This document shows, piece after piece, positions 15,299 through 35,762 of a stretch of DNA of 39,272 bases. The number at the start of each line of letters is the position of its first letter. The stretch's first letter is position 1. Both the position numbers and the translations under genes were made by a program. Source of the stretch: an uncultured Opitutaceae bacterium (GTDB lineage Bacteria > Verrucomicrobiota > Verrucomicrobiia > Opitutales > Opitutaceae); the NCBI GenBank assembly GCA_964527955.1, contig CAZGOX010000002.1, forward strand, positions 1-39,272, written 5' to 3'. Below the pieces are notes generated by a model. That model had not been told where the DNA came from. It searched no databases and was given only the letters and a program-made list of their open reading frames with translations.

Positions 15299-15820
15299 AT
15301 GGATCCCCTGCCCCCCCCTCCGTCGGTCCTGATCGTCGACGATGATACCATGGTCCTGGCCACCCTGCAGGTCACCCTGGCCACCGAGCCCTATGAGGTC
15401 ATTGTCAGTTCCAGCCCGATCCACGCGCTGACCCTGCTGCCGACCCGGGATTTCGCCGTTATCATCTCGGACCAGAGGATGCCGAAGATGATGGGACTCG
15501 ACTTCCTGGTCGAATGCCGGCGGCTCCGCCCCCGGGCCTCGCGGATCCTGCTCACGGCCGTCCTCGACCTGACCACGGCCATGGATGCGATCAACCGCGG
15601 CCAGATCTGCCGATTTATCGCCAAGCCCTGGCTGAGCGCCGAGCTGATCTCCGCAATTCGCGACGCCATCCAGCGACATGCCCTGGCGACCCATCACGCG
15701 GAGCTGGAAGCGGAGACCGTACGGCTCAACGAACAGCTGGCCCTGGCCAAACGGGAGCTCGCGATCGGCCGGGAGGAGCTGGAGCGCCAGCGCGCCCTGC
15801 AGGCGGCTGCCGGCCGCTGA
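15299..15820 (+). CDS. Stand-alone response-regulator receiver protein with C-terminal coiled coil
   Basis: The internal ATG at 15299 gives VLIVDDD..., phospho-acceptor context AVIISDQRMPKMMG, LLTA, and FIAKPW. The tail AELEAETVRLNEQLALAKRELAIGREELERQR is coiled-coil-like. No output domain. Confidence 0.85.
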   Translation: MDPLPPPPSVLIVDDDTMVLATLQVTLATEPYEVIVSSSPIHALTLLPTRDFAVIISDQRMPKMMGLDFLVECRRLRPRASRILLTAVLDLTTAMDAINRGQICRFIAKPWLSAELISAIRDAIQRHALATHHAELEAETVRLNEQLALAKRELAIGREELERQRALQAAAGR

Positions 15821-15844: not shown

Positions 15845-16771
15845 CTATTCCCGCCCGAGGAGGTGGGCCTCCAGCCGGGTGTAGCTGAGCTTTCCCGTCG
15901 CGTAGCGATGGACCAGCATCAGCGTCCCCAGCCGGTCCTGCGCGACCGGATTGGGAGCAAAGCGGAGGGCGTCGCCCAACCGCGTCGAAAGGTCGTACAG
16001 GCGCGCCCGCACCCGGTCGATCGGGCGCTCCGGTTCGGCGGCCGGCCGCACGGCCCCCCCGGCGGTTTCCCAGGCAAAGTCCTTCGGGAGGATCTTGTCC
16101 CGATGATGCCGCTCGGCCTCGGCCAGCGCGGCGCATGCCTTCACCACCTGCTGGTCCGCCGGAAAGGTGCGGAGCAGCCGCAGGGCGAGTTTTTGGGAGA
16201 TGCGGCCCTCCCGCACGAATTCGAGCAGGCGCGGGTCGGCCGAATTCAGGTTCTGGGCATTCGCGATGTGGGTCCGCGAAAAGCCCGTCCGCAGTGCCAG
16301 CTGCTCCCGAGTGCCACCCCCCAGGCGGCTCAGGCGGGAGAGGAAAATCATGCGCTCGAGCAGCGTGAAGGGCTTGCCGGAGTTGTAGGTCAGCTGGGAG
16401 GCGAACAGGTCGGCCTCTCCTGCCATCGGGTCAACCAGCCAGCAGACGATATGCGCCGAATCAAAGTCCCGGTGCAGCGGCCCCGGGGCCTCGCGTAGCG
16501 GCTGGTTGCCCTCGTAGACCACGTGCCGGGCTCCCTCCGCCGCGATCCGCAGGTGCTGGGCGCGGGCGAAGGCCCGGTGGCGCCGGTGCCCGTCCACGAG
16601 GAAGAACTCTTCCCCGTGGCGCCGGACCTTGACCGGCTCGAGCTGGCCCTCGGTCATGAGCCGGATCGCCAGGCCGTCGATGTCGCCGTAGAAGATCCGG
16701 AGATTGAAGTTCCGATCCTCGAGGACCCGCTCGAGCGGAAGGATGAAGGGGGCGGAACCTTCTCTGCGCAT
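15845..16771 (-). CDS. ParB/Srx-fold N-terminal domain + HTH protein (orphan ParB-like, no ParA nearby)
   Basis: ParB box pattern LEPVKVRRHGEEFFLVDGHRRHRAFARA (GxRRxRA, the ParB CTP-pocket motif), followed by a ParB-type HTH REQLALRTGFSRTHIANAQNLNSADPRLLEFVREGRIS. The C-terminal ~110 aa are unique. Confidence 0.75.
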   Translation of the reverse strand: MRREGSAPFILPLERVLEDRNFNLRIFYGDIDGLAIRLMTEGQLEPVKVRRHGEEFFLVDGHRRHRAFARAQHLRIAAEGARHVVYEGNQPLREAPGPLHRDFDSAHIVCWLVDPMAGEADLFASQLTYNSGKPFTLLERMIFLSRLSRLGGGTREQLALRTGFSRTHIANAQNLNSADPRLLEFVREGRISQKLALRLLRTFPADQQVVKACAALAEAERHHRDKILPKDFAWETAGGAVRPAAEPERPIDRVRARLYDLSTRLGDALRFAPNPVAQDRLGTLMLVHRYATGKLSYTRLEAHLLGRE

Positions 16772-16800
16772 GTCCGGAGGGATCAGGCGCCGGGCGTCGT

Positions 16801-18108
16801 TCAGACCGCGCAGGCCAGGGCCGGCGCTTCCGCGGAAAAGGAGGCGGCGGACGGTTCGACCGACCCGATCAGGCAGATGCGCGCCGGCTCGTCGACCGTC
16901 TTGACCGCCGCCGCGGCCGACGCCCGGCCTCGCGCCAGGGACAGGGCGGCCTCGTCGCGGAACAAACGGGCCGCCAGTTCGGCGGCGTCGCCGATATCGT
17001 TGCGCATCGCGATGACAAATTGCTTCAGCAGGTCCAGCTCCAGCACCCGGGCGTGCAGGATCCGGGCTATATCGTCCTGCTCAGCCGCCTCGCGCGGCCG
17101 CAGGGCCGCCGGGTCCGCGACCACGTCCTGCAGCCGCATTTCCTCGTCGCCGAAGCCCGGCAGCGGATCCTCCATCGACTGGACCTGCGGGATCAGGCTG
17201 ATGGAATCGCCCGATCCGTCAGTGGCACCCTCCGGGAGCTGCCGCTGGCGCCGGGCCTTTTCCTGCAGGCCGATCGGGATCCGGATCACGTAGCGGGTCT
17301 TGGCCACAAAGCGGTCGATCGCCATCTTGACCCAGGGCATCGCATAGGTGCTGAACTGGCCGACCGTTGGGTCATAGCGGCCCGCCGCGATCATCAGCCC
17401 GTCGGTGCCGGCGGTGAACAGGTCGTCCAAGACGACGCTGGTCTGGTAGCGGCCGCGCTGGCAGGCGATCTTGGCCGCCAGGAGGAGATTGCCGGTGAGG
17501 ATCTCGTCGCGCAGCCCGCGCGCGGCCGTCAGCGCGGTCGTCAACTCGTTCCGCAGGGCCTCCGTGCAGGCCCGGGCCGGCAGGGCGCGCAGCGCCACCT
17601 GCTCGATGATCTCGAAGGTGAAACCGATGAGAAAGCCGGCCTCCCAGTCGGCGGCCTGGGCCGCCGTCAGGCGCCCCTCGCGCCGGTCGGCTTGGCGCGC
17701 CTCATATTCCTCAACGTGGCTTCGGGCCAGGCCGGCGAAGCGATGCGAGGCCTTTTTGCCCGAGTGCCGCTTGCGGTCCTCGTCGGAGCCCTCGCGGAAA
17801 TACTCGATGTGCCCCGCCTTCAGTTCCTGGACGAGGCGCTCGAGCGGATAGGCCAGCGCGGCCAACTGGACGCAGACCGCCGACTGGGCCTCGGTGAACG
17901 CCGCCGCGAGTTCCCGCGTGCGCGTCGAGGGCAGCGCGGGATGCTGGCGCAGGAGCAGTTTCATTCCTTCGCTGAATTCGCAGTTGGACATGGGGGGTAT
18001 CTCCGATGATCCCGTCAGGCTCCGCACCGGTGTTCGCCGGAGATCCGGCGAAGGCGGCGAGAAGCGCGATGGGAGGTTGAACCTGATGTGGTCAGTTGCA
18101 TTGGACAC
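16801..18108 (-). CDS. Atypical sigma-70-family protein with ~215-aa N-terminal extension
   Basis: Region 2 is clear: LRDEILTGNLLLAAKIACQ...LDDLFTAGTDGLMIAAGRYDPTVGQFSTYAMPWVKMAIDRFVAKTRYVIRIP. A weak region-4-like segment is LELDLLKQFVIAMRNDIGDAAELAARL...SLARGRA. Alternative start at 17991 (M40). Stop is 29 nt upstream of the ParB-like start. Confidence 0.65.
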   Translation of the reverse strand: MSNATDHIRFNLPSRFSPPSPDLRRTPVRSLTGSSEIPPMSNCEFSEGMKLLLRQHPALPSTRTRELAAAFTEAQSAVCVQLAALAYPLERLVQELKAGHIEYFREGSDEDRKRHSGKKASHRFAGLARSHVEEYEARQADRREGRLTAAQAADWEAGFLIGFTFEIIEQVALRALPARACTEALRNELTTALTAARGLRDEILTGNLLLAAKIACQRGRYQTSVVLDDLFTAGTDGLMIAAGRYDPTVGQFSTYAMPWVKMAIDRFVAKTRYVIRIPIGLQEKARRQRQLPEGATDGSGDSISLIPQVQSMEDPLPGFGDEEMRLQDVVADPAALRPREAAEQDDIARILHARVLELDLLKQFVIAMRNDIGDAAELAARLFRDEAALSLARGRASAAAAVKTVDEPARICLIGSVEPSAASFSAEAPALACAV

Positions 18109-18264
18109 ACCACGAACATCCCAATGTCCTGCATTGTGAATTTTTTCCCGTTCAATTCTTGTTCAAGCAGGCCTAGGTAGAACTACCCAGGGGGTTTTCC
18201 CGGTTCCTTGCCCGGGGCCCCGCCCTTCCTGCCCCGGACCTTCGTCCGGAACCGGTTTCCTCCC

Positions 18265-18984
18265 TCAGCCTCCGGTGGGAATCCGGACCCGGAAGCATGC
18301 GCCCGGCGCACCGGGCGGCGACACCAGGCTGATCGTCCCGCGCAGCTGCAAGAGCGCGTCGCGGCAGATGGATAGGCCGAAACCGGCGCCCGCTTGGCCT
18401 TCCTTGTCCAGCCGGAGAAAGAGGCTTGAGCGCTTCCCCGGGGGCACGCCCGGGCCGTTGTCGGCAATTTCCACCTGCAGCCAGCCGGCCTCGCCCGCGA
18501 GGCGGACCTCGATCTGGGGATCGGTCACGCCCCGGAGGGCCTCGACGGCGTTCCGCAGCAGGTTGAGAACCGTCACCCGCAGCAGTCGCCGGTCGGTCCG
18601 GATTGTATCGGTGGGGTGACGGAATGATGGCAGGAGGCGGATCCCGGACCGGGCAGCCAGGGGTTCGATCATCCCCACGGCCTCCTGCACCAGTTCCTGG
18701 ATGGAAACCGGTTCCAGCACGGTGCAATCGCACCGCAGCATGTCCAGGCCGATGTTGAAATCCCCGATGAACACGTCGAATTCGTGCAGGAGGCTGGCGC
18801 GATATTCGGCCGACAGGTTTGCCTCCATCCCCGCCTCGAGGAGCTCGAGCGCCGCGCGCAGCGTCGCCAGCCGGCCGCGCGCCTCGTGCCCGATCAGCGA
18901 GGCGACATAGGCGACCGCCGCCAGCCGTTCACGCGCCAGCGCGTCGCCACCTCCGGGCACTTCCAGGGAGGGGGAGCCGCTCAT
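18265..18984 (-). CDS. Small cytoplasmic histidine kinase (DHp + HATPase_c only, no sensor or TM region)
   Basis: H-box SLIGHEARGRLATL, N-box VLNLLRNAVEAL, G1 IADNGPGV and G2 GAGFGLSI. 239 aa. Start ATG overlaps the upstream stop (ATGA). Confidence 0.85.
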   Translation of the reverse strand: MSGSPSLEVPGGGDALARERLAAVAYVASLIGHEARGRLATLRAALELLEAGMEANLSAEYRASLLHEFDVFIGDFNIGLDMLRCDCTVLEPVSIQELVQEAVGMIEPLAARSGIRLLPSFRHPTDTIRTDRRLLRVTVLNLLRNAVEALRGVTDPQIEVRLAGEAGWLQVEIADNGPGVPPGKRSSLFLRLDKEGQAGAGFGLSICRDALLQLRGTISLVSPPGAPGACFRVRIPTGG

Positions 18985-20174
18985 AGTGCCACCGGAAATG
19001 CCGTCTCGACCGTGAACACACCGGCGACCGGCCGGGGCAGGAAGACGGCGCCGCGGGCGGCCGAAAGGACGCCGGCGAGGACATGCAGGTTGCCGGTCCG
19101 GCCCTCGTCCAGGCCGAAGGCGAAGGCATCGCGGATCTCGTCCACGGACGCCCCCGACAGGCTGCCGGAGATCCGGAATATCACGTAGGGCCGGTCGCGG
19201 CGGATCGTCTCGCGGTTCAGGACGCAGGCGGCCTGGCCGAGCCGTTCCGTCATCAGGCCGGCCGAATGCACGATAGAGGCGACAAGGGTCGTCTCCGCCC
19301 CGGGCGCTGCCCGCACGAAAAAGTACTCCACCAGGTGGCGCAGCCCGTTCAGGAGCTCAAGCGGGGCGCATTCCACCAGCGTGTCGCTGAGGAGGTCCCG
19401 CAACACCAGGCTCTTCCGGTCCGCAGTCCACCGATCCACGCCGACAAAGAATTGCCGCAGCGCCCCGAGGCACAGGTTGACGGGGGCCCGGGAGGCCGCG
19501 CTGCCGACCCCGAAGGGCCCGTCGAGGAACGCGTTGACCGAATCCACCATCTTGCCGACCAGGCTCGCCGACCGCCGCGCATGCTCCTCGAACTCCGCGT
19601 TGCCGCCGCGCCGGGCGTCCGTGCTGAGGAGCGAACCCAGCGCCGACAGCACGGTCAGCTGGTTGCGCAGCTGGTGGACCAGCCCGCGATGGAGGTCTGC
19701 CGCCGCCAGCCGCAAGTCGTAGCTCCCCAGCGCCTCGGCGAGCTTCTCCTTCGTGACGCCGGCTTCGCGGGCCGCCTGGGTCGTCTCGCGCCGTTCGCGG
19801 GTCTCGCGGATCGCCTGCTCGGTGCTGTGCCGCAGCTCCGCCAGAGTCGTCTTCGACTTAACCGCCCGCTTGATCGCGCGGAGCTCGATCGCCCGGTCCG
19901 CGATCTGGTCGGAGTCGTTCGCCGTGCGGATGATGATCGCGAGGTCCTTGTCAAACTCCCGCAGGGCGCGGAGGAAGGCGATCCCGTCCATCTCCGAGCG
20001 GGCGAGCCGCACGTCGACGATGGCCGCGTCGCACCGGTTCGCGCGCGCATATTTGAGCGCCGGCTCCGGCGTCATGAAATCGACCAGCTTCCCCAGCCCC
20101 GCGAGCTGCGCCTGCAGCGTCAGGATCTGCGAGCGCTCGTCCTCCAGGATCAGGATGATGGGGTCGGGCGTCAT
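18981..20174 (-). CDS. Receiver + DHp protein with degenerate catalytic (CA) domain (pseudo-kinase / phosphorelay-type)
   Basis: The internal ATG at 20174 gives MTPDPIILILEDE..., acceptor AAIVDVRL, IIIRTAN, and H-box LVHQLRNQLTVLSAL. C-terminal region: N-box Asn missing (LLNGLRHLVEYF); G1/G2 degenerate (ISGSLSG, RTGNLHVLAG). ATGA overlap with the upstream OmpR-type gene. The first 214 codons of track ORF 18981..20819 are rejected. Confidence 0.75.
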   Translation of the reverse strand: MTPDPIILILEDERSQILTLQAQLAGLGKLVDFMTPEPALKYARANRCDAAIVDVRLARSEMDGIAFLRALREFDKDLAIIIRTANDSDQIADRAIELRAIKRAVKSKTTLAELRHSTEQAIRETRERRETTQAAREAGVTKEKLAEALGSYDLRLAAADLHRGLVHQLRNQLTVLSALGSLLSTDARRGGNAEFEEHARRSASLVGKMVDSVNAFLDGPFGVGSAASRAPVNLCLGALRQFFVGVDRWTADRKSLVLRDLLSDTLVECAPLELLNGLRHLVEYFFVRAAPGAETTLVASIVHSAGLMTERLGQAACVLNRETIRRDRPYVIFRISGSLSGASVDEIRDAFAFGLDEGRTGNLHVLAGVLSAARGAVFLPRPVAGVFTVETAFPVAL

Positions 20175-20911
20175 GGGCTTCGCCGGGCGGCCCGGGAGTC
20201 GATCCGCCACCCGGCCTTCGGCTCGCTCACGACCCAGCGGTTCAGGTCGAGTCCGTGGCGGGAATACAGGCCGCGCAGTTTTGAGACGTATTCGTTCACC
20301 GAATGTCCGGCATCGTTGGCGTCCGAGCCCCAGACGGCCTTGACCAGCTCGTCCTTGAGCACCAGGCCGCCGGCCTTTTCCGCGAAGACCCGCAGGATCC
20401 CGAGGTGCTTCGGGCCGATCCGCTCCTCCGTGCCGTCGGGAAACCGGAGCATCAGGTCGGGCGTGACGGTGGCCTCGCCAAAGTTGAATTCCTTCTGGCC
20501 CAGGATCACCCCGCCGGCCCGGCGCATCGTCGTCTTTACGTCGCCCCGCGCCAGCAGCTTGCGGATGCGCACCAGCAATTCCTCGTAGTGAAAGGGCTTC
20601 CGCAGAAAATCGTCGGCCCCGGCATCCAGCGCCTCCACCGCGAGCGACGGCTGGGGGAGGTCCGACAGGGCGATGATCGGAAAACCGGCTCCGGCCTCCC
20701 GCCAATCCCGGATGGCATCCAGGCCGGCGGGCCGGCCGCCCAGGGCAAGGTCGACGAGGGCCAGGTCGAAGGAACGGCGGAGGACGGCATCCCGCGCCGG
20801 GCCGGCCTTGGTATGCCACTCCAGCTCGTGGGGCTGGAGCGCCAGCTGGAGAATGCCGCCAAGTTCTGGACTTTCGATGAGGAGCAGCAGGCAGCTCCGG
20901 CGGGGCACCAT
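20171..20911 (-). CDS. OmpR/PhoB-type response regulator (receiver + winged-helix)
   Basis: Receiver LLLLIESPE..., FDLALVDLAL, IIALSD and GADDFLRKPF. Winged helix FNFGEATV...IGPKHLGILRVFAEKAGGLVLKDELVKAVWG...SVNEYVSKLRGL...GWRI. Start set at M43 (20911); ATG 21037 is the alternative. Confidence 0.85.
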   Translation of the reverse strand: MVPRRSCLLLLIESPELGGILQLALQPHELEWHTKAGPARDAVLRRSFDLALVDLALGGRPAGLDAIRDWREAGAGFPIIALSDLPQPSLAVEALDAGADDFLRKPFHYEELLVRIRKLLARGDVKTTMRRAGGVILGQKEFNFGEATVTPDLMLRFPDGTEERIGPKHLGILRVFAEKAGGLVLKDELVKAVWGSDANDAGHSVNEYVSKLRGLYSRHGLDLNRWVVSEPKAGWRIDSRAARRSP

Positions 20912-21051
20912 GGTAGCGAGGGTTTTGCGCGACGCGGGCGGCGGAGACAAGACATCAATTGGCGGTGCGCCGCCCGGCGCCGGGGACCGGCCGCCGACGG
21001 CCTTGCCGCCGGCCCGGTGTACAGTCGCCTCGGCCATCGCGCCCGGACGCC

Positions 21052-23013
21052 TCAGGACTCGACCTTGTCGGCGATCGGGAGGCGCTCGACACCCTCCCGG
21101 GCCGCATCGAGCTGCCGGCGCACCCGCTCGGCGCGGAGGGAGGTGGGCGCGGTCAGCTCGTCCTTGGCCATTCTCAGTTCACCCAGCCGCACGTCGATCA
21201 GGGAGAGCTCTATGGCCATTTGCCCGAAGCGATTGAGCACCGAATCCTTGTTCAGGCGGTTGGCGCTGGCCTGCAGGGCGGTGATGTCGGCGGGCATGCC
21301 CTCCAGGCTTTGCACGACCTGGGAGAGCGATTCGTCTTTCGCCCCCTGGAACAGCCGATGCCGGAAGGGCGGGACAACCGCCGCCTCGCCGGGCGGGGCC
21401 GTCGACTCGGTCTGGATGAGCTCCGGGGTGATGAAGGCGAGCAGGGTCGTGTGAATGACGCTGTCGCTCTTGTTCTTGAAGGCGTAGCCGATCAACGGGA
21501 GGTCCCCGAAGATAGGAATCTTGTTGTCGGTGGTCTGCCGGCTGCGCTCCTCCAGGCCGGCGATCGCGAGGGTCTCTCCATTGGGAATCGCCACCGAATA
21601 GGCATACGTCCGTGAACTCGTTATGGGGTATTGATTGCCGTTGATCGTCTGCTGCCCGATGATCGAGGATACGTTGATCGACAGGTTAAGCTGGACCAAC
21701 TCCTTGGCTGGGCCTGATCCGGGCAAAATGCAGGGCAGGATGGTCACTTCGGTGCCGACGTCGATGTAGGCGATCTGCGAAGTGGTTGCCGCTGTCGCCG
21801 AGCCGATCGTCGTCGTCCCCTCCTGGATCGGCTGCTGGCTCGTGGCCTTGAAGGATACCTCCCGGTTGTTCGAGGTATAGATTACCGGATCCTGCACGAT
21901 GGAGCTCATGTGATCCGAGGCGATGGCTTGGACGGTCCATTGGAAGGCGGGGGCCGACAGCAGCGCGATCGGGGGGAGCTTGGTGTTGCCCGGATGGTTT
22001 AGATCGACTCCCGTGACCAGGCGCGCGTCAGGAGGACCTTGGAAGATAGCGCCGCCGGTGATGGGATCCTTGGTCTCCGTCGCCCAGCCGCCTAAACTGA
22101 TCGGTCCCCCGGAGCCCAGCGGAGTGTTGGACCAATCCACGCCGAGCGCCTGCGTCGGATTGCGCGCCGTTTCGATGAACTTGACCGAAATGCGGATGAG
22201 TTTCTGCGGCCGGTCCACGGTCTTGAGATAGGACGCGATCAGGGAGTGCTGCTGGCGGGTGGCCACGACGAACAGCTGGCTCGTGTCGGGATTCCAGATC
22301 GGCTCGATCTTGGGCGAATCGACCGACTTGCGCGCAGCCCCGATCCCGGGAACTGCGCTGCTGCCTTCCAGCGACAGCGTCTCCAGGCCGGCGGTGGGAA
22401 CCCCGAGGATTTTCTTGATGTCATCGATGATCTTGTCGGTCTTCACCGTGAAGGCCGACGACTTTCCCGACCCGGCCGACGAGGCGTAGGACGAACCGGA
22501 ACCGCCGGCGCCGGCGCCGCCACCGTTCGTCATGCTGCCCATGGCCGCGAGCTGGCTGTTGATGCCCGAGGAAGTGATGGAGACCTGCTGCATATTGTTG
22601 AAACGCAGGGTGTAGGACTTGCTGACTAGCTCGTTTAAATTGATGCGGTAGAACTGCCAGACGCCGCCGCGGTAGTCGGCTGCGAAGTTGTAGTTCTCGG
22701 CCAGGATCTGGATGAGGGCGTAGGGATTCATCCGCACGTCGCTCGTCACCCGCTCGCTGAAATCGGCCTCCGCCGGAGAAAGATAGGACATGTGGGCGGC
22801 CTGGGCCAGGAGACGGATGGCGCTGGCCAGCGTCGCCCCCTTGAGCGGGATGTGGCTGGGCGGCAGCGCTTCAAGGCGGGCCATTTCCGCCTCTTGGGCG
22901 AGCGGCGCGGCCACGACCTCCGCAGGCGCGGCCGGCGCGGGCGCGTCGGCAGCATGGAGCCGGGAAATCGAGAGCAACAGCACGGCGGCAGCGGAGAGCC
23001 TCAGCTTGGGCAT
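21052..23013 (-). CDS. Secretin (GspD/PilQ family) with signal peptide and ~119-aa helical C-terminal extension
   Basis: The internal ATG at 23013 gives MPKLRLSAAAVLLLSISRLHA|AD. N0-like IPLKGATLASAIRLLAQAAHMSYL, N-domain KLIRISVKFIETARN, and secretin core ...GETLAIAGLEERSRQTTDNKIPIFGDLPLIGYAFKNKSDSVIHTTLLAFITPELI. The 5' 423 codons of track ORF 21052..24282 are antisense to the peptidase gene. Confidence 0.9.
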   Translation of the reverse strand: MPKLRLSAAAVLLLSISRLHAADAPAPAAPAEVVAAPLAQEAEMARLEALPPSHIPLKGATLASAIRLLAQAAHMSYLSPAEADFSERVTSDVRMNPYALIQILAENYNFAADYRGGVWQFYRINLNELVSKSYTLRFNNMQQVSITSSGINSQLAAMGSMTNGGGAGAGGSGSSYASSAGSGKSSAFTVKTDKIIDDIKKILGVPTAGLETLSLEGSSAVPGIGAARKSVDSPKIEPIWNPDTSQLFVVATRQQHSLIASYLKTVDRPQKLIRISVKFIETARNPTQALGVDWSNTPLGSGGPISLGGWATETKDPITGGAIFQGPPDARLVTGVDLNHPGNTKLPPIALLSAPAFQWTVQAIASDHMSSIVQDPVIYTSNNREVSFKATSQQPIQEGTTTIGSATAATTSQIAYIDVGTEVTILPCILPGSGPAKELVQLNLSINVSSIIGQQTINGNQYPITSSRTYAYSVAIPNGETLAIAGLEERSRQTTDNKIPIFGDLPLIGYAFKNKSDSVIHTTLLAFITPELIQTESTAPPGEAAVVPPFRHRLFQGAKDESLSQVVQSLEGMPADITALQASANRLNKDSVLNRFGQMAIELSLIDVRLGELRMAKDELTAPTSLRAERVRRQLDAAREGVERLPIADKVES

Positions 23014-23019
23014 GGTGGC

Positions 23020-23028
23020 AGTATAACA
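23020..23028 (-). promoter_or_regulatory. Candidate extended -10 (TGTTATACT on minus strand) only 6 nt upstream of the secretin ATG
   Basis: Plus strand AGTATAACA is TGT-TATACT on the minus strand. This spacing would imply a leaderless or near-leaderless secretin mRNA. No good -35. Confidence 0.25.
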
Positions 23029-23029
23029 G

Positions 23030-23096: not shown

Positions 23097-23109
23097 CCCT
23101 CCTTCGGCC

Positions 23110-23307
23110 ATGCATTGGTTCACCGCGAGCGATGGAAGCCGCTTCCTCGTCCAGACCCCCTCCGAGTGCGCGAAAACGCTGGCGCGGGCCTTCCCCTCCC
23201 CCCTCGTGCCGGTGACTTCGCGGCGGTTTCTGGCCCAGGCCAGGGCCGAGTGTCCGCTGCCCGCGCGCCGCGGAAAGCGGCTTTCGATCAAGGGGACCGC
23301 CGGGTAG
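23110..23307 (+). CDS. Candidate small ORF (65 aa) at the head of the pilus operon
   Basis: Track ORF MHWFTASDGSRFLVQTPSECAKTLARAFPSPLV.... I count about 56 of 65 codons ending in G/C, matching the genes of this window. Ends 33 nt before the peptidase ATG. Caveat: antisense ORF 23001..23291 shares the same third positions. Confidence 0.3.
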   Translation: MHWFTASDGSRFLVQTPSECAKTLARAFPSPLVPVTSRRFLAQARAECPLPARRGKRLSIKGTAG

Positions 23308-23340
23308 CCCGCATTTCCCTGCTAGACTAGGCGGAGACCC

Positions 23341-24216
23341 ATGAGCGGTTCCGCCCTCCTTTCCGCCTTCCCGTCCCACTGGCTCTGGGGCGCGCTGATC
23401 TTCCTGCTCGGCACGCTCGCCGGCCGGGGACTGGGCATGGTGGTCCAGGCGTTTGCGGAAGCGGAGTGCCCCCCGGGGGCGGCGCCCCCCGCCCGGGGAC
23501 GCCGGGAGCTCATCCCCGTCCTCGGCCCGATGCTGGCGCCGCGCCGGCCCGGCTTCCGGCGGGCGGCGTTGCTCGAACTGCTCGGCGGGGGCGTGGTCCT
23601 CGCCTGCTGGCTGCTCTTCCCGCCGGCCAAGGCGGCCTGCGGCTGCATCTTCGTCCTCGGGCTGATTGGAGCGTCGGTCATCGACCTCGACCACATGATC
23701 ATTCCCGACTTCTTTACCATGGGCCTCGCCCTCGCGGGTGTGCTGCTGTCGATCGCCGTCCCCGCGCTCCACCGGATGGGCCCCTTCGGCCCGGAGGCCT
23801 GCGTCCGCTCGGGCGCCGCCGCCCTGCTGGGGATCGGGCTCGGTTCCGCGCTTCCCCTTTGGTTCGGGCTCGTCGGCGAGCGCGTCCTGCAGAAGGAGGT
23901 CCTCGGTTTCGGCGACGTGAAATTCCTGGGTGCGATCGGCGCTTTCTGCGGCTGGCAAGGCGCCGTCTTCTCTCTCTTCGGCGGGGCGGTCGTCGGCGCC
24001 GTCGCGCTCGTCCTGGCCGCCCTCCACGAACGGCTCGCGCCCGGCCGCCCAGCCCGCCTGCTCCACCTGGAGTCCGCCGACGGCCAGTCGGCCCGGCTCG
24101 GCTGGGGCGTGCATTTCCCCTTCGGACCCATGCTGGCGATCGCCGCCGGCCTTTACTTCCTGGCGCTGCATCCCTGGGTCGATGGCTATCTTGCCCGCTA
24201 TCAGGCGCTTTTCTGA
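23341..24216 (+). CDS. Prepilin peptidase (A24 aspartic protease, PilD/GspO family)
   Basis: Catalytic Asp motifs IDLDHMIIPD and GFGDVKFLGAIGAF, polytopic hydrophobic profile, 291 aa. The N-terminal region lacks the paired CxxC motifs. Confidence 0.9.
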   Translation: MSGSALLSAFPSHWLWGALIFLLGTLAGRGLGMVVQAFAEAECPPGAAPPARGRRELIPVLGPMLAPRRPGFRRAALLELLGGGVVLACWLLFPPAKAACGCIFVLGLIGASVIDLDHMIIPDFFTMGLALAGVLLSIAVPALHRMGPFGPEACVRSGAAALLGIGLGSALPLWFGLVGERVLQKEVLGFGDVKFLGAIGAFCGWQGAVFSLFGGAVVGAVALVLAALHERLAPGRPARLLHLESADGQSARLGWGVHFPFGPMLAIAAGLYFLALHPWVDGYLARYQALF

Positions 24217-24313
24217 GCCACCGCCAAAAAACGCTCCCCGGGGGCCGGTTCGGCCCAACCGCGTGCTACACTTGGATCGCACTCAAGTACCAAACCAAAA
24301 CAAAAAAGGTCAT

Positions 24314-24745
24314 ATGCAACTCATCCAGAAGCTTCTGAAGCGGACCCGTCCGCACTCCGCCCGGAATCGTCTTTTGCGCGGGCTCAGCACGGCGGAACTC
24401 GTCGGCATCATCGTCATCGTCGGCATCCTGGGCGCCCTCGGCGGCACCTACGTCAACGGTCTGGTCAACCAGGCCAACACCAACGGCGGTAACCAGAACG
24501 CCAACACGCTCAACACGGTCGCCGCCTCCATCTTCGCGGCCGGCGCCACGGTCGGCTCGGGCGCGGGCCAGCTGGACACGACCTCTGCGGCGACGGCCAT
24601 CGCCGCGGTCAACACCGGGGTCACGGTCGGCGGCGTCCTCTACAAGATGACCCCGCAGATCGCCGCCGGCAGCATCGCGTCCTACACCATGACCGGGGCC
24701 GGCACGACCAACGTGGTCTTCAGCTACGCCGGGCCGACGCCGTAA
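24314..24745 (+). CDS. Prepilin-like protein A (major-pilin candidate), 23-aa basic leader, cleavage G|LSTAE
   Basis: The internal ATG at 24314 gives MQLIQKLLKRTRPHSARNRLLRG|LSTAELVGIIVIVGILGALGG, with Gly-1, Glu+5 and a hydrophobic helix. Mature ~120 aa, Thr/Ala/Gly-rich, no Cys. First pilin gene, preceded by an A-rich leader. Confidence 0.8.
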   Translation: MQLIQKLLKRTRPHSARNRLLRGLSTAELVGIIVIVGILGALGGTYVNGLVNQANTNGGNQNANTLNTVAASIFAAGATVGSGAGQLDTTSAATAIAAVNTGVTVGGVLYKMTPQIAAGSIASYTMTGAGTTNVVFSYAGPTP

Positions 24746-24805
24746 CGGCGGCCCTTGCCGCCCTCCCCGGGGCAGCTCCCCGGCGGACGGCGACCCTTTG
24801 GACCT

Positions 24806-25228
24806 ATGTTTGGTAACGTCCGAGCACTTCTCCGATCCCGCCGCAACCGGGCCCTACCCAGGGCCCGGTTGTCCGGCATGACGCTGGTCGAGGGGATCGG
24901 GATGGTCGTGCTGGTCGGCTTGATGGCGAGCCTGGCCTTTCCCGCGATCACCGGATTGCGGCAGGCCGGGCTGGACCAGCAGGCGATCAGCGTGGCCCAG
25001 GCCTTGAACCAGGCGCAGCAGACCTACCAGCTGCGGGTGGCCAACGCCGCCACCAATTGGAGCGGCGCCACCGATTCGGCCTCGAAGTACCTGCTGATTT
25101 CGGGGTACGTGCCGTATGCGACCGCCACAATCACCGATTACACGCCGTCCGGCTACACGCTGACGCTGGGGTCGACGCTCAACACCAAGGTCGTCATCGC
25201 GGGACCCAGCGGCACGGTGTCATATTGA
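24806..25228 (+). CDS. Prepilin-like protein B, 24-aa basic leader, cleavage G|MTLVE
   Basis: MFGNVRALLRSRRNRALPRARLSG|MTLVEGIGMVVLVGLMASLAFP. The alternative upstream ATG at 24755 would lengthen the leader further. Confidence 0.75.
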   Translation: MFGNVRALLRSRRNRALPRARLSGMTLVEGIGMVVLVGLMASLAFPAITGLRQAGLDQQAISVAQALNQAQQTYQLRVANAATNWSGATDSASKYLLISGYVPYATATITDYTPSGYTLTLGSTLNTKVVIAGPSGTVSY

Positions 25229-25246
25229 TATCCAAGCCCTGCCGCC

Positions 25247-26095
25247 ATGAAACCGGTTTCGTCATCCGGGCGCGGGGGGTTCTCGATCGTCGAGGCCATC
25301 GGCTACCTGATCATCTTCGCGATCATGATGGCCGCCCTGACCTTCGGCATGAGCAGCCTGTTCACGCAGCAGGCCCGCGGCCAGGTCACCTACAACCAGG
25401 AGCCATACTCCCAGGCTCCCAGCTTCGACGACTTCCGGCAGGCCATCGACCTGCATGCAGCCTTCTCGACCGCGACGGACCAGGCCGACTCGATCGTCGT
25501 CCTCGGCGGCACACGCAGCCACCCGGCCTTCGATCCGACCGGCCCCTCCAGCGCCCTGAAGGCGACCTTTGCCGATTCCACCCTCGCTGCCGCGGCCAAT
25601 GGCGACGGCTCCAAGGCCTTTTCCTCCTGGGACCAGCGGCAGGTCAATTCGAGCCAGTTCAGCATCTACCTGACGTCGAATCCGGACCCCGCGGACTTCA
25701 CCGTCCTCACCGTCCAGGGCCTTTCGCGGATCACCTCGGTCACCCAGCAGCGGCGCTACCAGGCCACGATCAACGGGCAGGCTCTTTCGCTTTACGAGGT
25801 CACGCACCAGTCGATCGACTGGTCCTCGGGCTCCCCGGTCCCGATCCCGAACGCGGCGACCGGCACCGGCCCGACCTACGCCTACCGCTTTTTCTACGCC
25901 GCGGGCGAGGACGTCTGGTCGATGGCCCCGGGGGCCACGCACTACTGGTACCGGACCGATGCCACCTGGAACCGCGACCAGGAGGGACCCGCGCGGGTCA
26001 TCTTCGCCGACCCGTACGCCATGGCGGGCCAGGATCCGAACTCCCAGCTGAGCCCGGTCTCGCGCTTCATCTATTTCCTCCCCCAGCTCCGATGA
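25247..26095 (+). CDS. Minor pilin / pseudopilin-like protein (282 aa), cleavage G|FSIVE
   Basis: MKPVSSSGRGG|FSIVEAIGYLIIFAIMMAAL. Short leader, Phe+1, Glu+5. The globular part has no recognisable family. Confidence 0.7.
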   Translation: MKPVSSSGRGGFSIVEAIGYLIIFAIMMAALTFGMSSLFTQQARGQVTYNQEPYSQAPSFDDFRQAIDLHAAFSTATDQADSIVVLGGTRSHPAFDPTGPSSALKATFADSTLAAAANGDGSKAFSSWDQRQVNSSQFSIYLTSNPDPADFTVLTVQGLSRITSVTQQRRYQATINGQALSLYEVTHQSIDWSSGSPVPIPNAATGTGPTYAYRFFYAAGEDVWSMAPGATHYWYRTDATWNRDQEGPARVIFADPYAMAGQDPNSQLSPVSRFIYFLPQLR

Positions 26096-27450
26096 AACGG
26101 CCCCCTTCACCCTGGCAAAACGAGCGCGGGATGGCGAGCGTCGCCGTCTTCGTCTTCGCCGTCGTCTCGGTGCTTATCCTCGTCGCCAATTTCAAGCTCA
26201 ACTATGCGGTGAACGCCACGAGCGACGGCTACGACACCTTCGCATCGCAGCTGGTCGAGAAGAACGGGATCGCGCAGATCGTGAAGGAAAGCATCCTCGC
26301 CGTCGGCGAGACCGCGAACACCACCAGCGCGAATTCCCTGCAGACCGAGATCCAGAACCGGCTCTCGAGCATGTCGTTTCCGACGGGGATCGCAGTCGCG
26401 CTGGATCCCTCCACCCCGGTGCCCGGCGTGCCGGCCAACTCCTTTTTTCCCCTGGGCGCGCCGGCCAGCGGCTCCTGGCCCGCCTATTTCACGCCTTCCG
26501 GGACCACGCGTCCGCTGGCGGGAATGGGAAACCTCCTTTCGTCCTTTTGCATGCTCGGGCCGGCCGCCGACCTGGGCCGGCTGACGCTCGCCTTCAATCG
26601 CACGAGCACCGCCTCCGCGGATGACAACCGGAAGTACACGGTGAACGCCGACCTGTTTTCCGTGCCGCTCACGAACGTCGATGTGGTCGCCTACGGGCTG
26701 CCCGCGAGCGGCATCATCCCGCAGTCCGCCCCGGCGGTGCCGGCGGGCTTTTTCGGGTCCGGCGTCTCCTCGCTCGTCGTCACCTCCAACAATCCCGCCA
26801 ACGATGCCACGGCCTACCCCGATCTCTTCGCCTCCTCCGGCACCGAGCACCTCCCCTACCAGTACCGCAACGCCGTCAGCTTCGCCTGGAACGCGTACGA
26901 ATACCTCTGGTCCGCGACCTACCAGAGCGCCCTGCTCGCCACCGCCTCGGCCAACAGCGCCATCTACAATTTCCAGTTTCCCCCCAGCCAGTCAATCCCC
27001 GGGGTGACCGCCGCCGGCAGCGCGGTGACGATAGACTGCAGTGCCGTCGTAGGCCCGATTCTCGCCATCGTGGATCCCGATGGCAGCGGCACCGTCACCG
27101 TGACCGGCAGCCCGGCCAACGGCGCCCCGTTCATCCTGTTGGTGCGCAATACCGCCGGCCCGGCGACCCCGGTGACCTTCTCCGGGGACAACCACCGCCC
27201 GGCCATCTACTATCTCGAGAACGCCAACGCCGGCTTCTCCGGCAGCCCGCAGATCCAGGGTGCCCTTTTTCTCGATCCGCGCGCGGTGGCCCATGGCAGC
27301 GTGACCTGGTTCGGCCATTTTTCGTTCTATGGCCCCGCGAGCCCCCTCGGCGCGCTCAACCTCACGATGGCCGACAGTCCCCCGGTCAAGGACGCCCTCG
27401 CGGCGCTCGCCCCGCGGGTTCTGCTCGTGTCGACCAGCTCCACCCGCTAG
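26092..27450 (+). CDS. Large minor-pilin-like protein lacking Glu+5 (GspK/PilX-like position), 452 aa
   Basis: The internal ATG at 26092 (ATGA overlap with the previous stop) gives MKRPPSPWQNERG|MASVAVFVFAVVSVLILV. Hydrophobic helix present, but residue +5 is Ala. The first 345 codons of track ORF 25057..27450 overlap the two upstream pilin genes (24806..25228, 25247..26095) on the same strand in other frames and are rejected. Confidence 0.55.
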   Translation: MKRPPSPWQNERGMASVAVFVFAVVSVLILVANFKLNYAVNATSDGYDTFASQLVEKNGIAQIVKESILAVGETANTTSANSLQTEIQNRLSSMSFPTGIAVALDPSTPVPGVPANSFFPLGAPASGSWPAYFTPSGTTRPLAGMGNLLSSFCMLGPAADLGRLTLAFNRTSTASADDNRKYTVNADLFSVPLTNVDVVAYGLPASGIIPQSAPAVPAGFFGSGVSSLVVTSNNPANDATAYPDLFASSGTEHLPYQYRNAVSFAWNAYEYLWSATYQSALLATASANSAIYNFQFPPSQSIPGVTAAGSAVTIDCSAVVGPILAIVDPDGSGTVTVTGSPANGAPFILLVRNTAGPATPVTFSGDNHRPAIYYLENANAGFSGSPQIQGALFLDPRAVAHGSVTWFGHFSFYGPASPLGALNLTMADSPPVKDALAALAPRVLLVSTSSTR

Positions 27451-27465
27451 CCAATTCCTTACCCC

Positions 27466-28677
27466 ATGTCGCCCAAGGCCAATGCCGGGTTTTCCACCGT
27501 CGAGCTCGTCGTAGCCGTCATGCTCTTCAGCGCAGCCACGGCGGGGGTCCTCGTCATGGGGAAGGGCATGCGCGACCATCGGATGGCGGCGGTGTCCGCC
27601 AACCAGCAGAACGCATATGCCACCTTCCAGTCGCAGGTGGCCCTGCAGGGCATCGATCCGACGCTCGTGGCGAATCCCATGGCTGACGCGATCAGCCAGG
27701 GCGGGACCGTCACCGGGCAGGCGGCGACAGGGGGAAGGAACCTTTCGGCGGCGTTCGAAGGCGGCGCCGTCTCCCAGCCGGTCGGCGCCCAGCGCAACCT
27801 GGCCGGATCGGTCCGGGTGGACGCCCTGAACTACGCGGTGGCTTCCGCGGGCAGCCAGGCGACCCGGGGCGTCGGGATAGGATTCACGATCGAGACCGCC
27901 GGGGCGGCTCCGGCGGGCCCGGCCAACGCGATTCCCCTCGCGCCCCCCTCCTTCAACGTGACGGGCGACCTCACGGGAGCCGCCTTTCCCCTGAACAATC
28001 TCGCGGTGTTGCCGAGCGGAAATCCCGCGGGAACGGTCTACCGCTACACCACCGACGGCTCCACCCCCAACGGCTCGAGTCCGGTGTGGGACAACAACCC
28101 CGGCTGGACCGCGGCCACGTTTCCCGCGCAGGTGACGCTCGAGGCCTTCAATCCCGATCCCCAATACTCCCCCAGCCCGTCCGTGAGCGCATCGTATTCG
28201 ATCCAGCTCAGCGTGACCTATGCCCGCGCCGACGGCCGGGCGGCCAACCTCTACGACTTCACCCTGGCCGACCTGGGCGCGCCCGCGGTTTCCGGCGTCG
28301 TCCTGACGGGGAATCTCGACGGTTTTCCCGTCGTTTTCACACTCGATGGATCTGATCCGCGGACGTCCCCTTCGGCCGCGACCTACGACAGCGCCTTCGC
28401 CCCCCTTCAGGCGCAGTTCGGACCCAATGTCACGTTGAAGGTCGCCGCGCTGTCGAACGATCCCCGGGTGAATCCGTCCTCGGTCACGACCTACACCCTG
28501 GATCCCCAGGCGATGGCCCTTTCCGCCCCCTCCTTCATCACCGACAACAGCCAGCCCCTGGCGCCGGGCACCCCCGTCCAGATCAGCATGAACGGCGCCG
28601 GCGGGTCGCCCCGGACCGAAATCAACGGCCCGCCCACCAACTCGAGCAGCCAATCCACCTCCTTTCCCCTCAACTAG
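27466..28677 (+). CDS. Minor pilin-like protein (403 aa), cleavage G|FSTVE, with C-terminal Fn3-associated / chitobiase-C-like modules
   Basis: MSPKANAG|FSTVELVVAVMLF. C-terminal repeats VYRYTTDGSTPNGSSPVW and VVFTLDGSDPRTSPSAATYDSAF...TLKVAALSND match the 'xYYTxDGSxPxxSSxxY' signature of CHB_HEX_C_1-type domains. Confidence 0.75.
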   Translation: MSPKANAGFSTVELVVAVMLFSAATAGVLVMGKGMRDHRMAAVSANQQNAYATFQSQVALQGIDPTLVANPMADAISQGGTVTGQAATGGRNLSAAFEGGAVSQPVGAQRNLAGSVRVDALNYAVASAGSQATRGVGIGFTIETAGAAPAGPANAIPLAPPSFNVTGDLTGAAFPLNNLAVLPSGNPAGTVYRYTTDGSTPNGSSPVWDNNPGWTAATFPAQVTLEAFNPDPQYSPSPSVSASYSIQLSVTYARADGRAANLYDFTLADLGAPAVSGVVLTGNLDGFPVVFTLDGSDPRTSPSAATYDSAFAPLQAQFGPNVTLKVAALSNDPRVNPSSVTTYTLDPQAMALSAPSFITDNSQPLAPGTPVQISMNGAGGSPRTEINGPPTNSSSQSTSFPLN

Positions 28678-28725
28678 TTGCCCGGCGGCGCATAATCGCG
28701 CATTTTAGCGTGTTATACTCGACGG

Positions 28726-31226: not shown

Positions 31227-31762
31227 AGCGCTTCACCCTCCCCGCCCTCGTCCTCCTCGCCGTCAGCGCGCTCCTGCTGCTGGCGATCCTCCGGAGTTTC
31301 GGGCGGGCCAGCCAGGCCGCGGGCAAGCTCGCCGCCGAGCAGCAGACGGTGGAGCTTTCCCGGCTCCGGCTGACCTCGGTCCTGCGGGCCGCGGCCACCG
31401 CGAAGAGCAAGAGCGCGGCGGCCGACAAGTTCCTGGAAACCTGGACCCAAGAGCTGGACGCCGAGTCCAACATCGAGCACGTCTTCGGCCGGCTCGACAC
31501 CCTCGCGGTGAACAACCTGCTGTCCCCTTCCGGCAAGAATTTCACGCTGAACAAGAACTACTTCTTCAACGGCCGCCACCTGCCCGTGCAGAACGTGAAC
31601 ATCACCGTGGCCGGCGACTACGCCCGCACGCTCAATTGGCTCGGCGCGGTGGAGTTCGCCTTCCCGCTGGCGCGGGTCGAGCAGATCTCCTACACGACCA
31701 ACGGGAACTCGCTCTCGCTCTCGGTCCAGTTCGTCTTTCCCCTCAAGTTCGAAGTGGAATGA
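31223..31762 (+). CDS. PilO/GspM-like bitopic protein
   Basis: Internal ATG at 31223 (ATGA overlap). MKRFTLPALVLLAVSALLLLAIL TM, a coiled-coil stretch, and a ~100-aa C-terminal domain. Called by topology and gene order only. Confidence 0.45.
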   Translation: MKRFTLPALVLLAVSALLLLAILRSFGRASQAAGKLAAEQQTVELSRLRLTSVLRAAATAKSKSAAADKFLETWTQELDAESNIEHVFGRLDTLAVNNLLSPSGKNFTLNKNYFFNGRHLPVQNVNITVAGDYARTLNWLGAVEFAFPLARVEQISYTTNGNSLSLSVQFVFPLKFEVE

Positions 31763-32256: not shown

Positions 32257-32269
32257 CCCCATCCGGACC

Positions 32270-34426: not shown

Positions 34427-34435
34427 GACGCCCCC

Positions 34436-35719: not shown

Positions 35720-35762
35720 TCGGTGCCGGGAAAGTCCCCCGGCGTGCTACACTAGGGGTGGC

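Follow-up and report, generated by a model that had tools for sequence, protein, structure and literature searches.

Nucleotide switches of the ParB family are emerging as long-range regulators of transcription, with KorB, VirB and BisD as the principal examples. To our knowledge, the well-studied ParB-like transcription switches all reside on plasmids or integrative elements. Those established as NTP switches that regulate transcription, some with partner proteins, include KorB with KorA/TrbA (PMC11790492, PMC13584720), VirB (PMC10770331) and BisD with BisC (PMC12409273). Control of pilus, secretion or transfer clusters by a ParB-like regulator of transcription has precedents (PMC11790492, PMC10770331, PMC12409273). 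In addition, a 2025 survey describes a ParB-CTPase fold fused to Sigma70 domains (PMC12704722).

The window, i.e., the whole stretch of 39,272 bp analysed here, is from an uncultured Opitutaceae bacterium. It carries two adjacent genes on the minus strand, one encoding a divergent sigma-70-family factor of 396 amino acids (16801..17991) and the other a ParB-fold protein of 308 amino acids that has no ParA partner (15845..16771). Both are minus-strand open reading frames, the second 29 nt downstream of the first (minus strand, 16772..16800), as the initial annotation had described. No terminator was found in the 29-nt gap, and co-transcription of the two genes is therefore likely. The same annotation had considered the pair an undescribed module. 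This is correct only in part, as ParB-family transcription switches and a ParB-Sigma70 fusion are already known. None of the switches compared (KorB, VirB and BisD) is paired with a sigma factor.

KorB of the IncP plasmid RK2 has an N-terminal NTP fold followed by a helix-turn-helix (HTH), as does the Opitutaceae protein; it regulates pilus/transfer genes and acts with a partner protein, KorA or TrbA (PMC11790492, PMC13584720). The KorB structure 8qa9 is among the top TM-scores of the PDB matches (TMt 0.53). However, KorB is plasmid-borne and functions also in partition with the ParA homologue IncC, whereas the protein described here is chromosomal, has no ParA and shares 16–18% sequence identity with KorB. 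The adjacent partner gene is a sigma factor and not a small repressor. In BisD–BisC of ICEclc (Pseudomonas), a ParB-like CTP clamp activates transfer/secretion promoters together with a separately encoded transcription factor. BisD, on the other hand, carries its own activator domain, has BisC as partner, and belongs, along with the bisS sites, to a mobile element; the available part of the source mentions no sigma factor (PMC12409273). The homology shown to the Opitutaceae protein is that of the ParB fold. VirB of the Shigella plasmid pINV is likewise a ParA-less ParB-like protein and, with CTP as switch ligand, activates the regulon of a secretion system (PMC10770331, PMC10653881). It does so by countering the silencing of AT-rich DNA by H-NS, whereas the G+C content of the pilus cluster equals that of its surroundings, and VirB has no paired sigma factor. 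The phage protein uvig_297896_22 contains both a ParB NTP-binding fold and sigma-70-type domains, in support of the view that the two can function jointly. It differs in being a single phage polypeptide with Box II GEHRVRA and reported ATP binding (PMC12704722). The Opitutaceae pair consists of two separate full-length proteins encoded on a bacterial chromosome, and the comparison is by domain make-up.

By profile and fold, the sigma gene product is a genuine sigma-70-family protein. It has a unique helical N-terminal domain (residues ~1–140) followed by regions 1.2/2.1–2.4, a linker and region 4; in the AlphaFold model (pLDDT 75), a short disordered linker (257–296) stands in for most of region 3 and the region 4 part is formed by helices 299–363. 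The presence of sigma region 2, proposed initially from the sequence, is borne out by several lines of evidence. NCBIfam models of the RpoD/RpoS/SigB type match region 1.2–2 with 35–61 bits (residues ~180–291 of the long sigma open reading frame), a 22-sequence family profile recovers primary sigma factors from the PDB (E ~1e-23), and SigA/RpoD chains are matched by the model at Foldseek probability 1.0. The Pfam model Sigma70_r2 (PF04542) scores 22.6 bits, just below its gathering score of 24, and several relatives carry a precomputed PF04542 match. Region 4 had been termed weak. It is divergent, and the Pfam r4 models do not match the single sequence, yet the family profile aligns clearly with SigA and RpoD, starting at the helix that precedes region 2.1 and continuing to the end of region 4.2 (profile position ~376–378). 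Pfam models for region 1.1 (Sigma70_r1_1) and for r3 gave no match.

In the family profile alignment, the sigma factor retains the core-binding motif of region 2.2 as well as the melting motif FSTYA, and region 2, predicted to serve core binding and promoter melting, is well conserved. Residues that would contact the −10 and −35 elements differ from those of primary sigmas; by manual reading of the alignment, these are Q437M, T440D, H455G, R584L, E585A and Q589A. The factor thus shares aligned regions 1.2/2.1–2.4 and 4.1–4.2 with the group 1–3 factors (RpoD/RpoS/SigB types) but has its unique N-terminal domain and scores far under every equivalog cut-off. Assignment to the primary or group 1–2 sigmas (RpoD/RpoS equivalogs) was rejected, the best NCBIfam score being 61 bits against cut-offs of 354–555 and matches to regions 1.1 and 3 being absent. 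An ECF (group 4) factor was rejected as well (TIGR02937, 34.9 bits against a cut-off of 42.9), the region 1.2/2 similarity being to group 1–3 sigmas. The MzaA sigma of the MZA anti-phage system is matched in sigma region 2 only (NF041931, 53 bits against a cut-off of 800; PADLOC MzaA, 29.5 bits, with only the shared sigma domain matching), and a PADLOC scan of four neighbouring proteins produced no match; membership in a defence system was not found.

Database relatives of the sigma factor all begin with MSN, and their ATG codons share one column in the upstream alignment. This places the start at ATG 17991; the longer form from GTG 18108 has no support from the relatives. With this start, the unique N-terminal part measures about 140 amino acids and not the ~215 first suggested. 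It has no significant match in the PDB or Pfam, and an impression that residues 8–36 are region 1.2-like found no support.

The second gene product is a member of the ParB-fold DNA-binding class, in which the N-domain fold is followed by a ParB-type HTH. Its layout consists of an N-terminal ParB NTP-binding fold with a β-hairpin insertion at residues 74–95, the HTH (residues ~137–221), a disordered linker and a three-helix C-terminal domain. HTH_ParB (Pfam) is matched with 27.7 bits, which exceeds the cut-off of 22.6. The phage family phrog_1033 aligns over residues 11–221 (74.2 bits, E 3e-20), and the family profile finds Myxococcus ParB and Noc in the PDB (E ~4e-7). The AlphaFold model (pLDDT 78) matches chains of ParB, Noc and KorB at Foldseek probability 1.0 (E 4e-8 to 1e-6). 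The motif GHRRxRA (G61 H62 R63 R64 x R66 A67) is invariant in 18 relatives. These findings agree with the initial description of a ParB N-terminal domain with GxRRxRA and a ParB-type HTH, and the HMM classification it had proposed as a check yields sigma-70 for one protein (NCBIfam and family profile) and ParB-like for the other (HTH_ParB and phrog_1033). The C-terminus, on the other hand, had been called unique; its end motif is common to a wider phage-type ParB-like subfamily.

GHRRxRA and the Box I residues are unchanged across relatives of 48–100% identity, which argues that selection acts on the nucleotide pocket. In the wider phage-type subfamily, too, GHRR is the usual form. Of interest is His62, which occupies the position of the catalytic glutamate (E93 of Myxococcus ParB) in alignments to PDB 7bnr, 7bnk and 7o0n, of which 7bnr and 7o0n are the mutants Q52A and E93A. 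In addition, Box III reads SQLxYNSGKPF in place of ENLQR. Because of this replacement, NTP binding as predicted from the sequence is uncertain; the two changes together suggest that nucleotide would more likely act as a binding switch than as a fast-turnover fuel. A canonical ParB/Spo0J partition protein was considered and rejected. Box II GxRRxRA is present, but there is no adjacent ParA, and Box III and the glutamate are changed. On the profile side, TIGR00180 reaches 39 bits on the N-terminal part against a cut-off of 58, and neither Pfam ParB_N nor the C-terminal dimerisation domain PF23552 matches. The initial remark that ParA is missing is correct for this contig: ParA-type (AAA_31) matches in the genome are confined to contigs C340 and C295, with none on the 39-kb contig. 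No ParA was called next to the pair in any of the related loci. The sole other ParB-type match in the genome is on contig C126.

The phage "ParB-like partition proteins" of phrog_1033 are the best family-level match. They have in common with the Opitutaceae protein the C-terminal end motif and the variants of all three boxes (FNxRxDYGD in Box I, DGHRRxRA in Box II, NxGKPFxxLE in Box III), and the flanking open reading frames scanned in two prophage loci gave no ParA-type family match. They differ in that identity is 24–30% and that these phage genes lie in early/regulatory regions with no sigma gene nearby. Sigma fusions were not found among the longest ParB-like relatives, and a metagenome scan with the outgroup ParB-like protein P0165 found nothing.

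The sigma and ParB-like genes are neighbours in every related locus examined, amounting to 13 distinct loci, which answers in the affirmative the earlier suggestion that their co-occurrence and synteny be checked. Synteny is kept in L001, L002, L004, L012–L019, L109 and L110 and in the rearranged P0122 contig, which represents one clade where three other genes lie between the two. The ParB-like gene is carried by eight GTDB species, with the sigma gene alongside in all eight, and the pair-bearing loci are all Opitutaceae MAGs or metagenome contigs; as these are closely related genomes, the loci count as few independent observations. The distribution of carriers is taken from an exhaustive pattern scan and a genus-weighted sample. 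Samples of 150 genomes of the family and 400 genomes of the phylum missed carriers through sampling. A second sigma subfamily, type-B, shares about 33% identity and is found beside a paralogous, 45%-identical secretin. Type-B sigmas also carry the unique N-terminal domain and a conserved loop, and their loci are without any ParB-like gene. As the link between sigma family and secretin persists in the subfamily that has no ParB-like gene, the ParB-like protein is an add-on and not an obligate partner of the sigma factor.

The pair had been described as an operon; it is not free-standing and proves to be the terminal part of a conserved but optional type IV pilus/T2SS-like cluster. This pilus cluster with its own two-component system is the context that best explains the pair. 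Upstream of the sigma gene and on the same strand are three regulatory genes (18265..20920), which encode a HATPase_c protein (18265–18984), a receiver-containing protein (18981–20174) and an OmpR-type response regulator (20171 to ~20920). They are followed by a minus-strand gene for a secretin of 653 amino acids (21052..23013). The divergent type IV pilus/T2SS-like operon (23110..39197, plus strand) contains a small open reading frame and genes for a prepilin peptidase, pilins, PilT-like and PilB-like ATPases, a platform protein and a giant adhesin. In the conserved block, pilins and prepilin peptidase lie on one side and, on the other, secretin, OmpR-type regulator, split histidine kinase, sigma factor, ParB-like protein and usually a receiver.

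Across the 13 loci, the pair is always accompanied by the secretin/pilus block, and the two-component system is usually present; in 12 loci, gene order with respect to the pilus genes is fixed. The block stops at the ParB-like or the receiver gene, the flanks beyond vary between species, and the block occupies different genomic sites. A secretin ortholog is found in five of 18 genomes of the same genus, though the neighbouring Rho genes are common to them. Synteny with same-genus genomes that have no cluster ends near 10.5 kb of the window (two of three contigs being too short for the far boundary). G+C content is uniform across the window, the cluster having that of its surroundings. Within the block, no integrase, replication or phage structural genes were found. 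A Y1 transposase lies 2.5 kb from the pair.

Several DNA motifs precede the genes of the cluster. A direct repeat, TTGAAC-N5-TTGAAC, with 11-bp phasing and followed by an A-tract, is present on the minus strand at 18150..18166, ~160 nt upstream of the sigma ATG, and a match with ≤2 substitutions lies just upstream of the sigma gene in 12 loci. It is a candidate site for the OmpR-type regulator of the cluster or a candidate promoter part. At 18171..18190 (minus strand), 5–8 nt upstream of the TTGAAC boxes, is an imperfect palindrome, CCTGGGTAG-TT-CTACCTAGG, with the family consensus CTRGGG-N6-8-CCCYAG. The palindrome is single in the genome, with no further copy within three mismatches, and other palindromes conserved across the block were not found. 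L110 retains a hairpin at this position with a different sequence. The palindrome is a candidate operator or loading site for the ParB-like protein or, alternatively, a candidate terminator hairpin of the upstream kinase operon.

The secretin promoter has an extended −10, TGTTATACT, at 6 nt upstream of the ATG, and the mRNA is accordingly predicted to be leaderless. Both pilA and the secretin gene are preceded by a TGnTAnACT extended −10 and the peptidase gene by TTGACA. Judging by their motifs, these three promoters, the ones visible in the pilus cluster, resemble those of ordinary housekeeping genes, and the regulon of the sigma factor may therefore lie elsewhere. A common unusual promoter motif marking this regulon was sought and rejected, the three promoters being housekeeping-like and unlike the region upstream of the sigma gene.

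Our preferred reading, which we hold to be probable though far from assured, is that the pair represents a co-transcribed regulatory cassette specific to the optional type IV pilus/T2SS-like cluster of one uncultured Opitutaceae genus. The OmpR-type regulator would turn on the sigma–ParB operon via the conserved 11-bp-phased TTGAAC repeats, and the sigma factor would then steer RNA polymerase to a small secretin/pilus-linked regulon. The ParB-like protein may act as do KorB, VirB and BisD, as a nucleotide-gated DNA-binding dimer with a palindromic loading site, for which the sole candidate is the palindrome that immediately precedes the operon; nucleotide would presumably serve it by being bound more than by rapid turnover. 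In this way, it might modulate transcription of the operon that encodes it, of the neighbouring pilus genes, or of both. The pair belongs to a narrow uncultured clade, and the functional steps are all inferred.

Whether the two proteins work together is where the readings part. According to one, they have separate jobs and share only a promoter, the ParB-like protein being a plain HTH repressor/autoregulator or a nucleoid-associated protein with a decayed pocket. This is unlikely, if the least so of the alternatives. The replaced Box III and the change of the catalytic glutamate to histidine are in its favour, as are the sub-threshold TIGR00180 score, the lack of a Pfam ParB_N match and the type-B sigma loci that have no ParB-like gene; invariance of GHRRxRA and Box I across 48–100% identity speaks against decay, as does the prevalence of GHRR in the wider phage-type subfamily. 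A direct sigma–ParB partnership, doubtful to a slightly greater degree, would have the clamp load near the cluster and recruit, deliver or gate the dedicated sigma factor or holoenzyme, as a two-polypeptide form of the sigma–ParB fusion. It is consistent with the 29-nt gap that has no terminator, with a linkage that outlasts the rearrangement placing three genes between the two, with the phage protein in which a ParB-CTPase fold is fused to Sigma70 domains (PMC12704722) and with the requirement of BisD for its partner activator BisC (PMC12409273). Yet the unique N-terminal domain and loop are present also in type-B sigmas, which lack a ParB-like gene, and are therefore not a ParB-specific docking feature. 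In addition, no sigma-like gene was found within 5 kb of 80 distant viral ParB-like relatives. The stricter proposal that the two are physical partners, an NTP-gated clamp beside the cluster holding the sigma factor or holoenzyme and so restricting promoter recognition to the locus, is somewhat more doubtful still. If true, it would point, together with the reported ParB-Sigma70 fusion, to an undescribed class of clamp-coupled sigma regulators in pilus, secretion and transfer clusters.

Two further explanations turn on the origin of the ParB-like gene and on the pilus itself. The gene, and perhaps that of the sigma factor, might be left over from a phage or plasmid maintenance or regulation module beside the pilus cluster. 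In its favour, phages supply both the best family match, phrog_1033, and, with their ParB-like proteins, the best matches by fold; the cluster is patchy in the genus and found at different sites, and the Y1 transposase is close by. But viral relatives (IMG/VR) are only 24–30% identical to the ParB-like protein and have no sigma gene nearby, GenBank phages and PLSDB plasmids gave no match, the block is devoid of integrase, replication and phage structural genes, G+C is even across the window, and 12 loci share one gene order relative to the pilus genes; a remnant is thus improbable. The initial annotation had itself raised a prophage or plasmid remnant as a possible explanation, and no close relative was found in IMG/VR, GenBank phages or PLSDB plasmids. 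Least probable is a role in DNA uptake, with the ParB-like protein handling DNA imported by a retractile type IV pilus. The cluster does have a PilT-like ATPase and a secretin, and a ComM-type gene adjoins the receiver gene in the window and in L001. This adjacency is lacking in L002, L004, L109 and L110, however, the HTH is of the sequence-specific type, and the N-terminus of the ParB-like protein has, by reading, no apparent signal peptide.

Returning to the preferred reading of a cluster-specific cassette, the locus represents a conserved chromosomal case in which a ParB-like protein belongs to a type IV pilus gene set and is connected both with a two-component system and with a dedicated sigma factor of unusual structure. 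The sister sigma subfamily without a ParB-like gene provides a natural control. Cooperation between the sigma factor and the ParB-like protein, if it occurs, would be a new means of keeping the action of a sigma factor at a single locus; otherwise, the pair is still the first clue to how an optional pilus system of soil/peat Opitutaceae is regulated.

A convergent gene next to the pair, noted already in the initial annotation, encodes a stand-alone receiver (15299..15820, plus strand). The open reading frame opens at 15212, with 15299 as the likely start. The Response_reg profile matches with 63.8 bits, and a C-terminal coiled coil is found in addition. The receiver gene adjoins the pair in most, not all, loci, and its strand varies.

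The window comprises contig C2 in its entirety (39,272 bp), from a metagenome-assembled genome of 3.17 Mb that is 86% complete; G+C is even along it (60–72% in each 1-kb window). Both minus-strand open reading frames described in the initial annotation, 16801–18108 and 15845–16771, were found. Database relatives of the sigma protein are 385–416 amino acids long and all start MSN..., and when nine upstream regions are aligned, the ATGs of the relatives line up with the ATG at 17991. The sigma gene is therefore placed at 16801–17991 (396 amino acids), and the unique N-terminal extension of ~215 amino acids initially proposed is reduced to an unmatched domain of residues 1–140. A gap of 29 nt separates it from the ParB-like gene; no terminator-like site was found there.

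The product of 16801–17991 is a genuine sigma-70-family member, as first read from its region 2, and lies outside every curated sigma subgroup. Its Pfam Sigma70_r2 score of 22.6 is just below the threshold of 24, and the NCBIfam RpoD, RpoS, SigB and SigF models match region 1.2–2 with 35–61 bits, all far under their equivalog cut-offs. The family profile (A2, 22 members) retrieves primary sigma factors from the PDB at E ~1e-23, in an alignment unbroken from the helix preceding region 2.1 through the end of region 4.2, and the AlphaFold model (pLDDT 75) retrieves SigA and RpoD chains. Region 2.2 (DDLFTAGTDGLMIA..RYD) is retained, as is the FSTYA melting motif. Replacements relative to E. coli sigma-70 at the -10, extended -10 and -35 contacts, hand-read from the A2–PDB profile alignment, are Q437M, T440D, H455G, R584L, E585A and Q589A, and a disordered linker (residues 257–296) stands for most of region 3. 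Residues 1–140 form a conserved all-helical domain that includes a disordered, strongly conserved loop (YFREGSDQDRK..GKK.SYRFAG) and has no significant match in PDB or Pfam. An ECF sigma identity was ruled out (TIGR02937, 34.9 against a cut-off of 42.9).

The ParB assignment of the second protein is also upheld. HTH_ParB exceeds its cut-off, and the N-terminal part matches the TIGR00180 and Noc models under theirs. The family profile A1 matches Myxococcus ParB, Noc and Spo0J in the PDB, and a structure search with the AlphaFold model (pLDDT 78) reaches probability 1.0 for ParB, Noc and KorB; phage ParB-like proteins are slightly better structural matches, and the top family match is phrog_1033 (74 bits). 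The GxRRxRA-type motif is invariant in the family as G61-H62-R63-R64-x-R66-A67. On a residue map drawn from the PDB mutant chains 7bnr (Q52A, within the DKDQPR stretch) and 7o0n (E93A, the Glu of GERR), His62 occupies the position of the catalytic Glu. Box III reads SQLxYNSGKPF instead of ENLQR, and a beta-hairpin insertion (residues 74–95) follows Box II. The C-terminus is not unique as thought: its end motif, like these variants, is common to a wider uncharacterised subfamily that takes in ParA-less prophage proteins. ParA is indeed missing from the locus, as a genome-wide look found ParA-type matches on contigs C340 and C295 only and none on the window contig; the sole other ParB-type match is on C126.

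The operon pairing is kept across genomes. In a collection of 5.8 billion proteins each family forms ~64 clusters at 90% identity, and the source names, where given, are Opitutaceae throughout; the hits to the two families also agree in the lengths of their contigs. When 185,579 species representatives were scanned exhaustively by pattern, eight genomes proved to have the ParB-like gene, with sigma alongside in all eight; these carriers were missed by random sampling of 150 genomes from the family and 400 from the phylum. Gene maps or tblastn place the ParB-like gene after sigma in the window and in the related Opitutaceae loci L001, L002, L004, L012, L013, L014, L016, L017, L018, L109 and L110 (L015 and L019 are the same places as L002 and L004, respectively). 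A single 5.7-kb contig from the most divergent clade also carries both genes, with bPH_2, HIRAN and receiver-protein genes intervening.

The pair ends a larger block. Positions 21052–39197 encode a type IV pilus/T2SS-like machine: secretin, a small conserved open reading frame, prepilin peptidase, pilins, PilT-like and PilB-like ATPases, a platform protein and a giant adhesin. Genes for an OmpR-type regulator, a receiver-containing protein and a HATPase protein lie between secretin and sigma. The order pilins-peptidase / secretin-regulator-receiver-HATPase-sigma-ParB-like is identical in nine loci, usually terminated by a receiver gene, and species differ in their neighbours past the ParB-like or receiver gene. 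Cluster-less genomes of the same genus share the Rho genes (72–77% identity), and synteny with two of them (G125, G537) ends past a CoaE-like gene near 10.5 kb. The block thus behaves as an optional unit of which sigma and the ParB-like gene are the last members; its secretin occurs in 5 of 18 same-genus genomes (genus-weighted sample). For a ComM-type gene (13611–15128, plus strand), five genomes of the genus gave no match at E<=1e-50, and with the synteny end near 10.5 kb this suggests that the optional region may extend beyond the pilus block. An IS200-like Y1 transposase gene (RAYT-like, 328 amino acids; 12390–13376, minus strand) lies 2.5 kb from the pair, and is also present in L001 and absent from other loci. 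Between secretin and prepilin peptidase lies a 65-amino-acid open reading frame (23110–23307, plus strand) without a family match; tblastn recovers it from six related loci with 55–80% identity, and gene calling picks it up in L001 and L003.

A second sigma subfamily (L026, 10001–11191; L027, 10001–11137) has ~33% identity and the same domain plan, including the N-terminal domain. The secretin beside it is 45% identical to that of the window; upstream there is usually a gene for a small receiver, and a ParB-like gene is absent. As secretin is kept here without the ParB-like gene, sigma-secretin is the older link and the ParB-like gene a later addition. No relationship was detectable between the receivers of the two subfamilies. 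L026 and L027 also have PIN/VapB and TraG/TrwC genes within 10 kb.

Transcriptional regulation by a ParB-family CTP switch is established for KorB with KorA or TrbA (PMC11790492, PMC13584720), VirB (PMC10770331, PMC10653881), HerB (bioRxiv 10.64898/2026.07.07.736705) and BisD with BisC (PMC12409273). A 2025 survey describes an ATP-binding ParB-CTPase fold fused to Sigma70 domains (PMC12704722), a protein of phage origin according to its supplement. A full-text literature search found no published account of a separately encoded sigma/ParB-like operon. The observation of the pair is confirmed, with corrections. Its initial interpretation is partly supported: the two folds and their linkage hold, and the pair is not free-standing. 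The reading we lean towards is a regulatory cassette dedicated to the cluster, with the ParB-like protein acting as a putative KorB/VirB/BisD-type regulator; a direct sigma-ParB partnership is a less probable alternative.

Upstream of sigma, 12 loci have a TTGAAC-N5-TTGAAC repeat (18150–18166 in the window), exact or with no more than two substitutions, and an A-tract after it. Phasing of 11 bp is the geometry of OmpR/PhoB-type dimers, so the repeat is a candidate site for the OmpR-type regulator of the cluster. An imperfect palindrome (18171–18190; consensus CTRGGG-N6-8-CCCYAG), 5–8 bases further upstream and occurring once in the genome, may be a site of the ParB-like protein. This assignment is less firm because the palindrome can also form a hairpin downstream of the kinase gene, L110 (3631–3789) keeps the TTGAAC boxes with a different GC-rich hairpin (CGGCGCC-N11-GGCGCCG) in its place, and no second conserved palindrome was found in the block; operator and terminator are about equally probable. 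L110 also has a 47-amino-acid open reading frame called between sigma and the ParB-like gene.

The other visible promoters of the cluster (pilA, secretin and peptidase side) look housekeeping-like. The pilA extended -10 (TGCTACACT, 24264–24272, plus strand) is found ahead of the first pilin gene in nine loci, and the peptidase-side promoter carries TTGACA. The secretin extended -10 (TGTTATACT, 23020–23028, minus strand), likewise conserved, lies 6 nt ahead of the ATG, a spacing that implies a putative leaderless mRNA; the paralogous secretin beside the second sigma subfamily has CGTTATAGT 5 nt ahead of its ATG. In L108, from the most divergent clade, a 70-bp divergent region directly upstream of sigma (718–787) contains a perfect 15-bp inverted repeat, TTTACCACGGAATTC-N10-GAATTCCGTGGTAAA; bPH_2 and HIRAN genes follow sigma there, and a sister contig has the ParB-like gene 2.5 kb further on.
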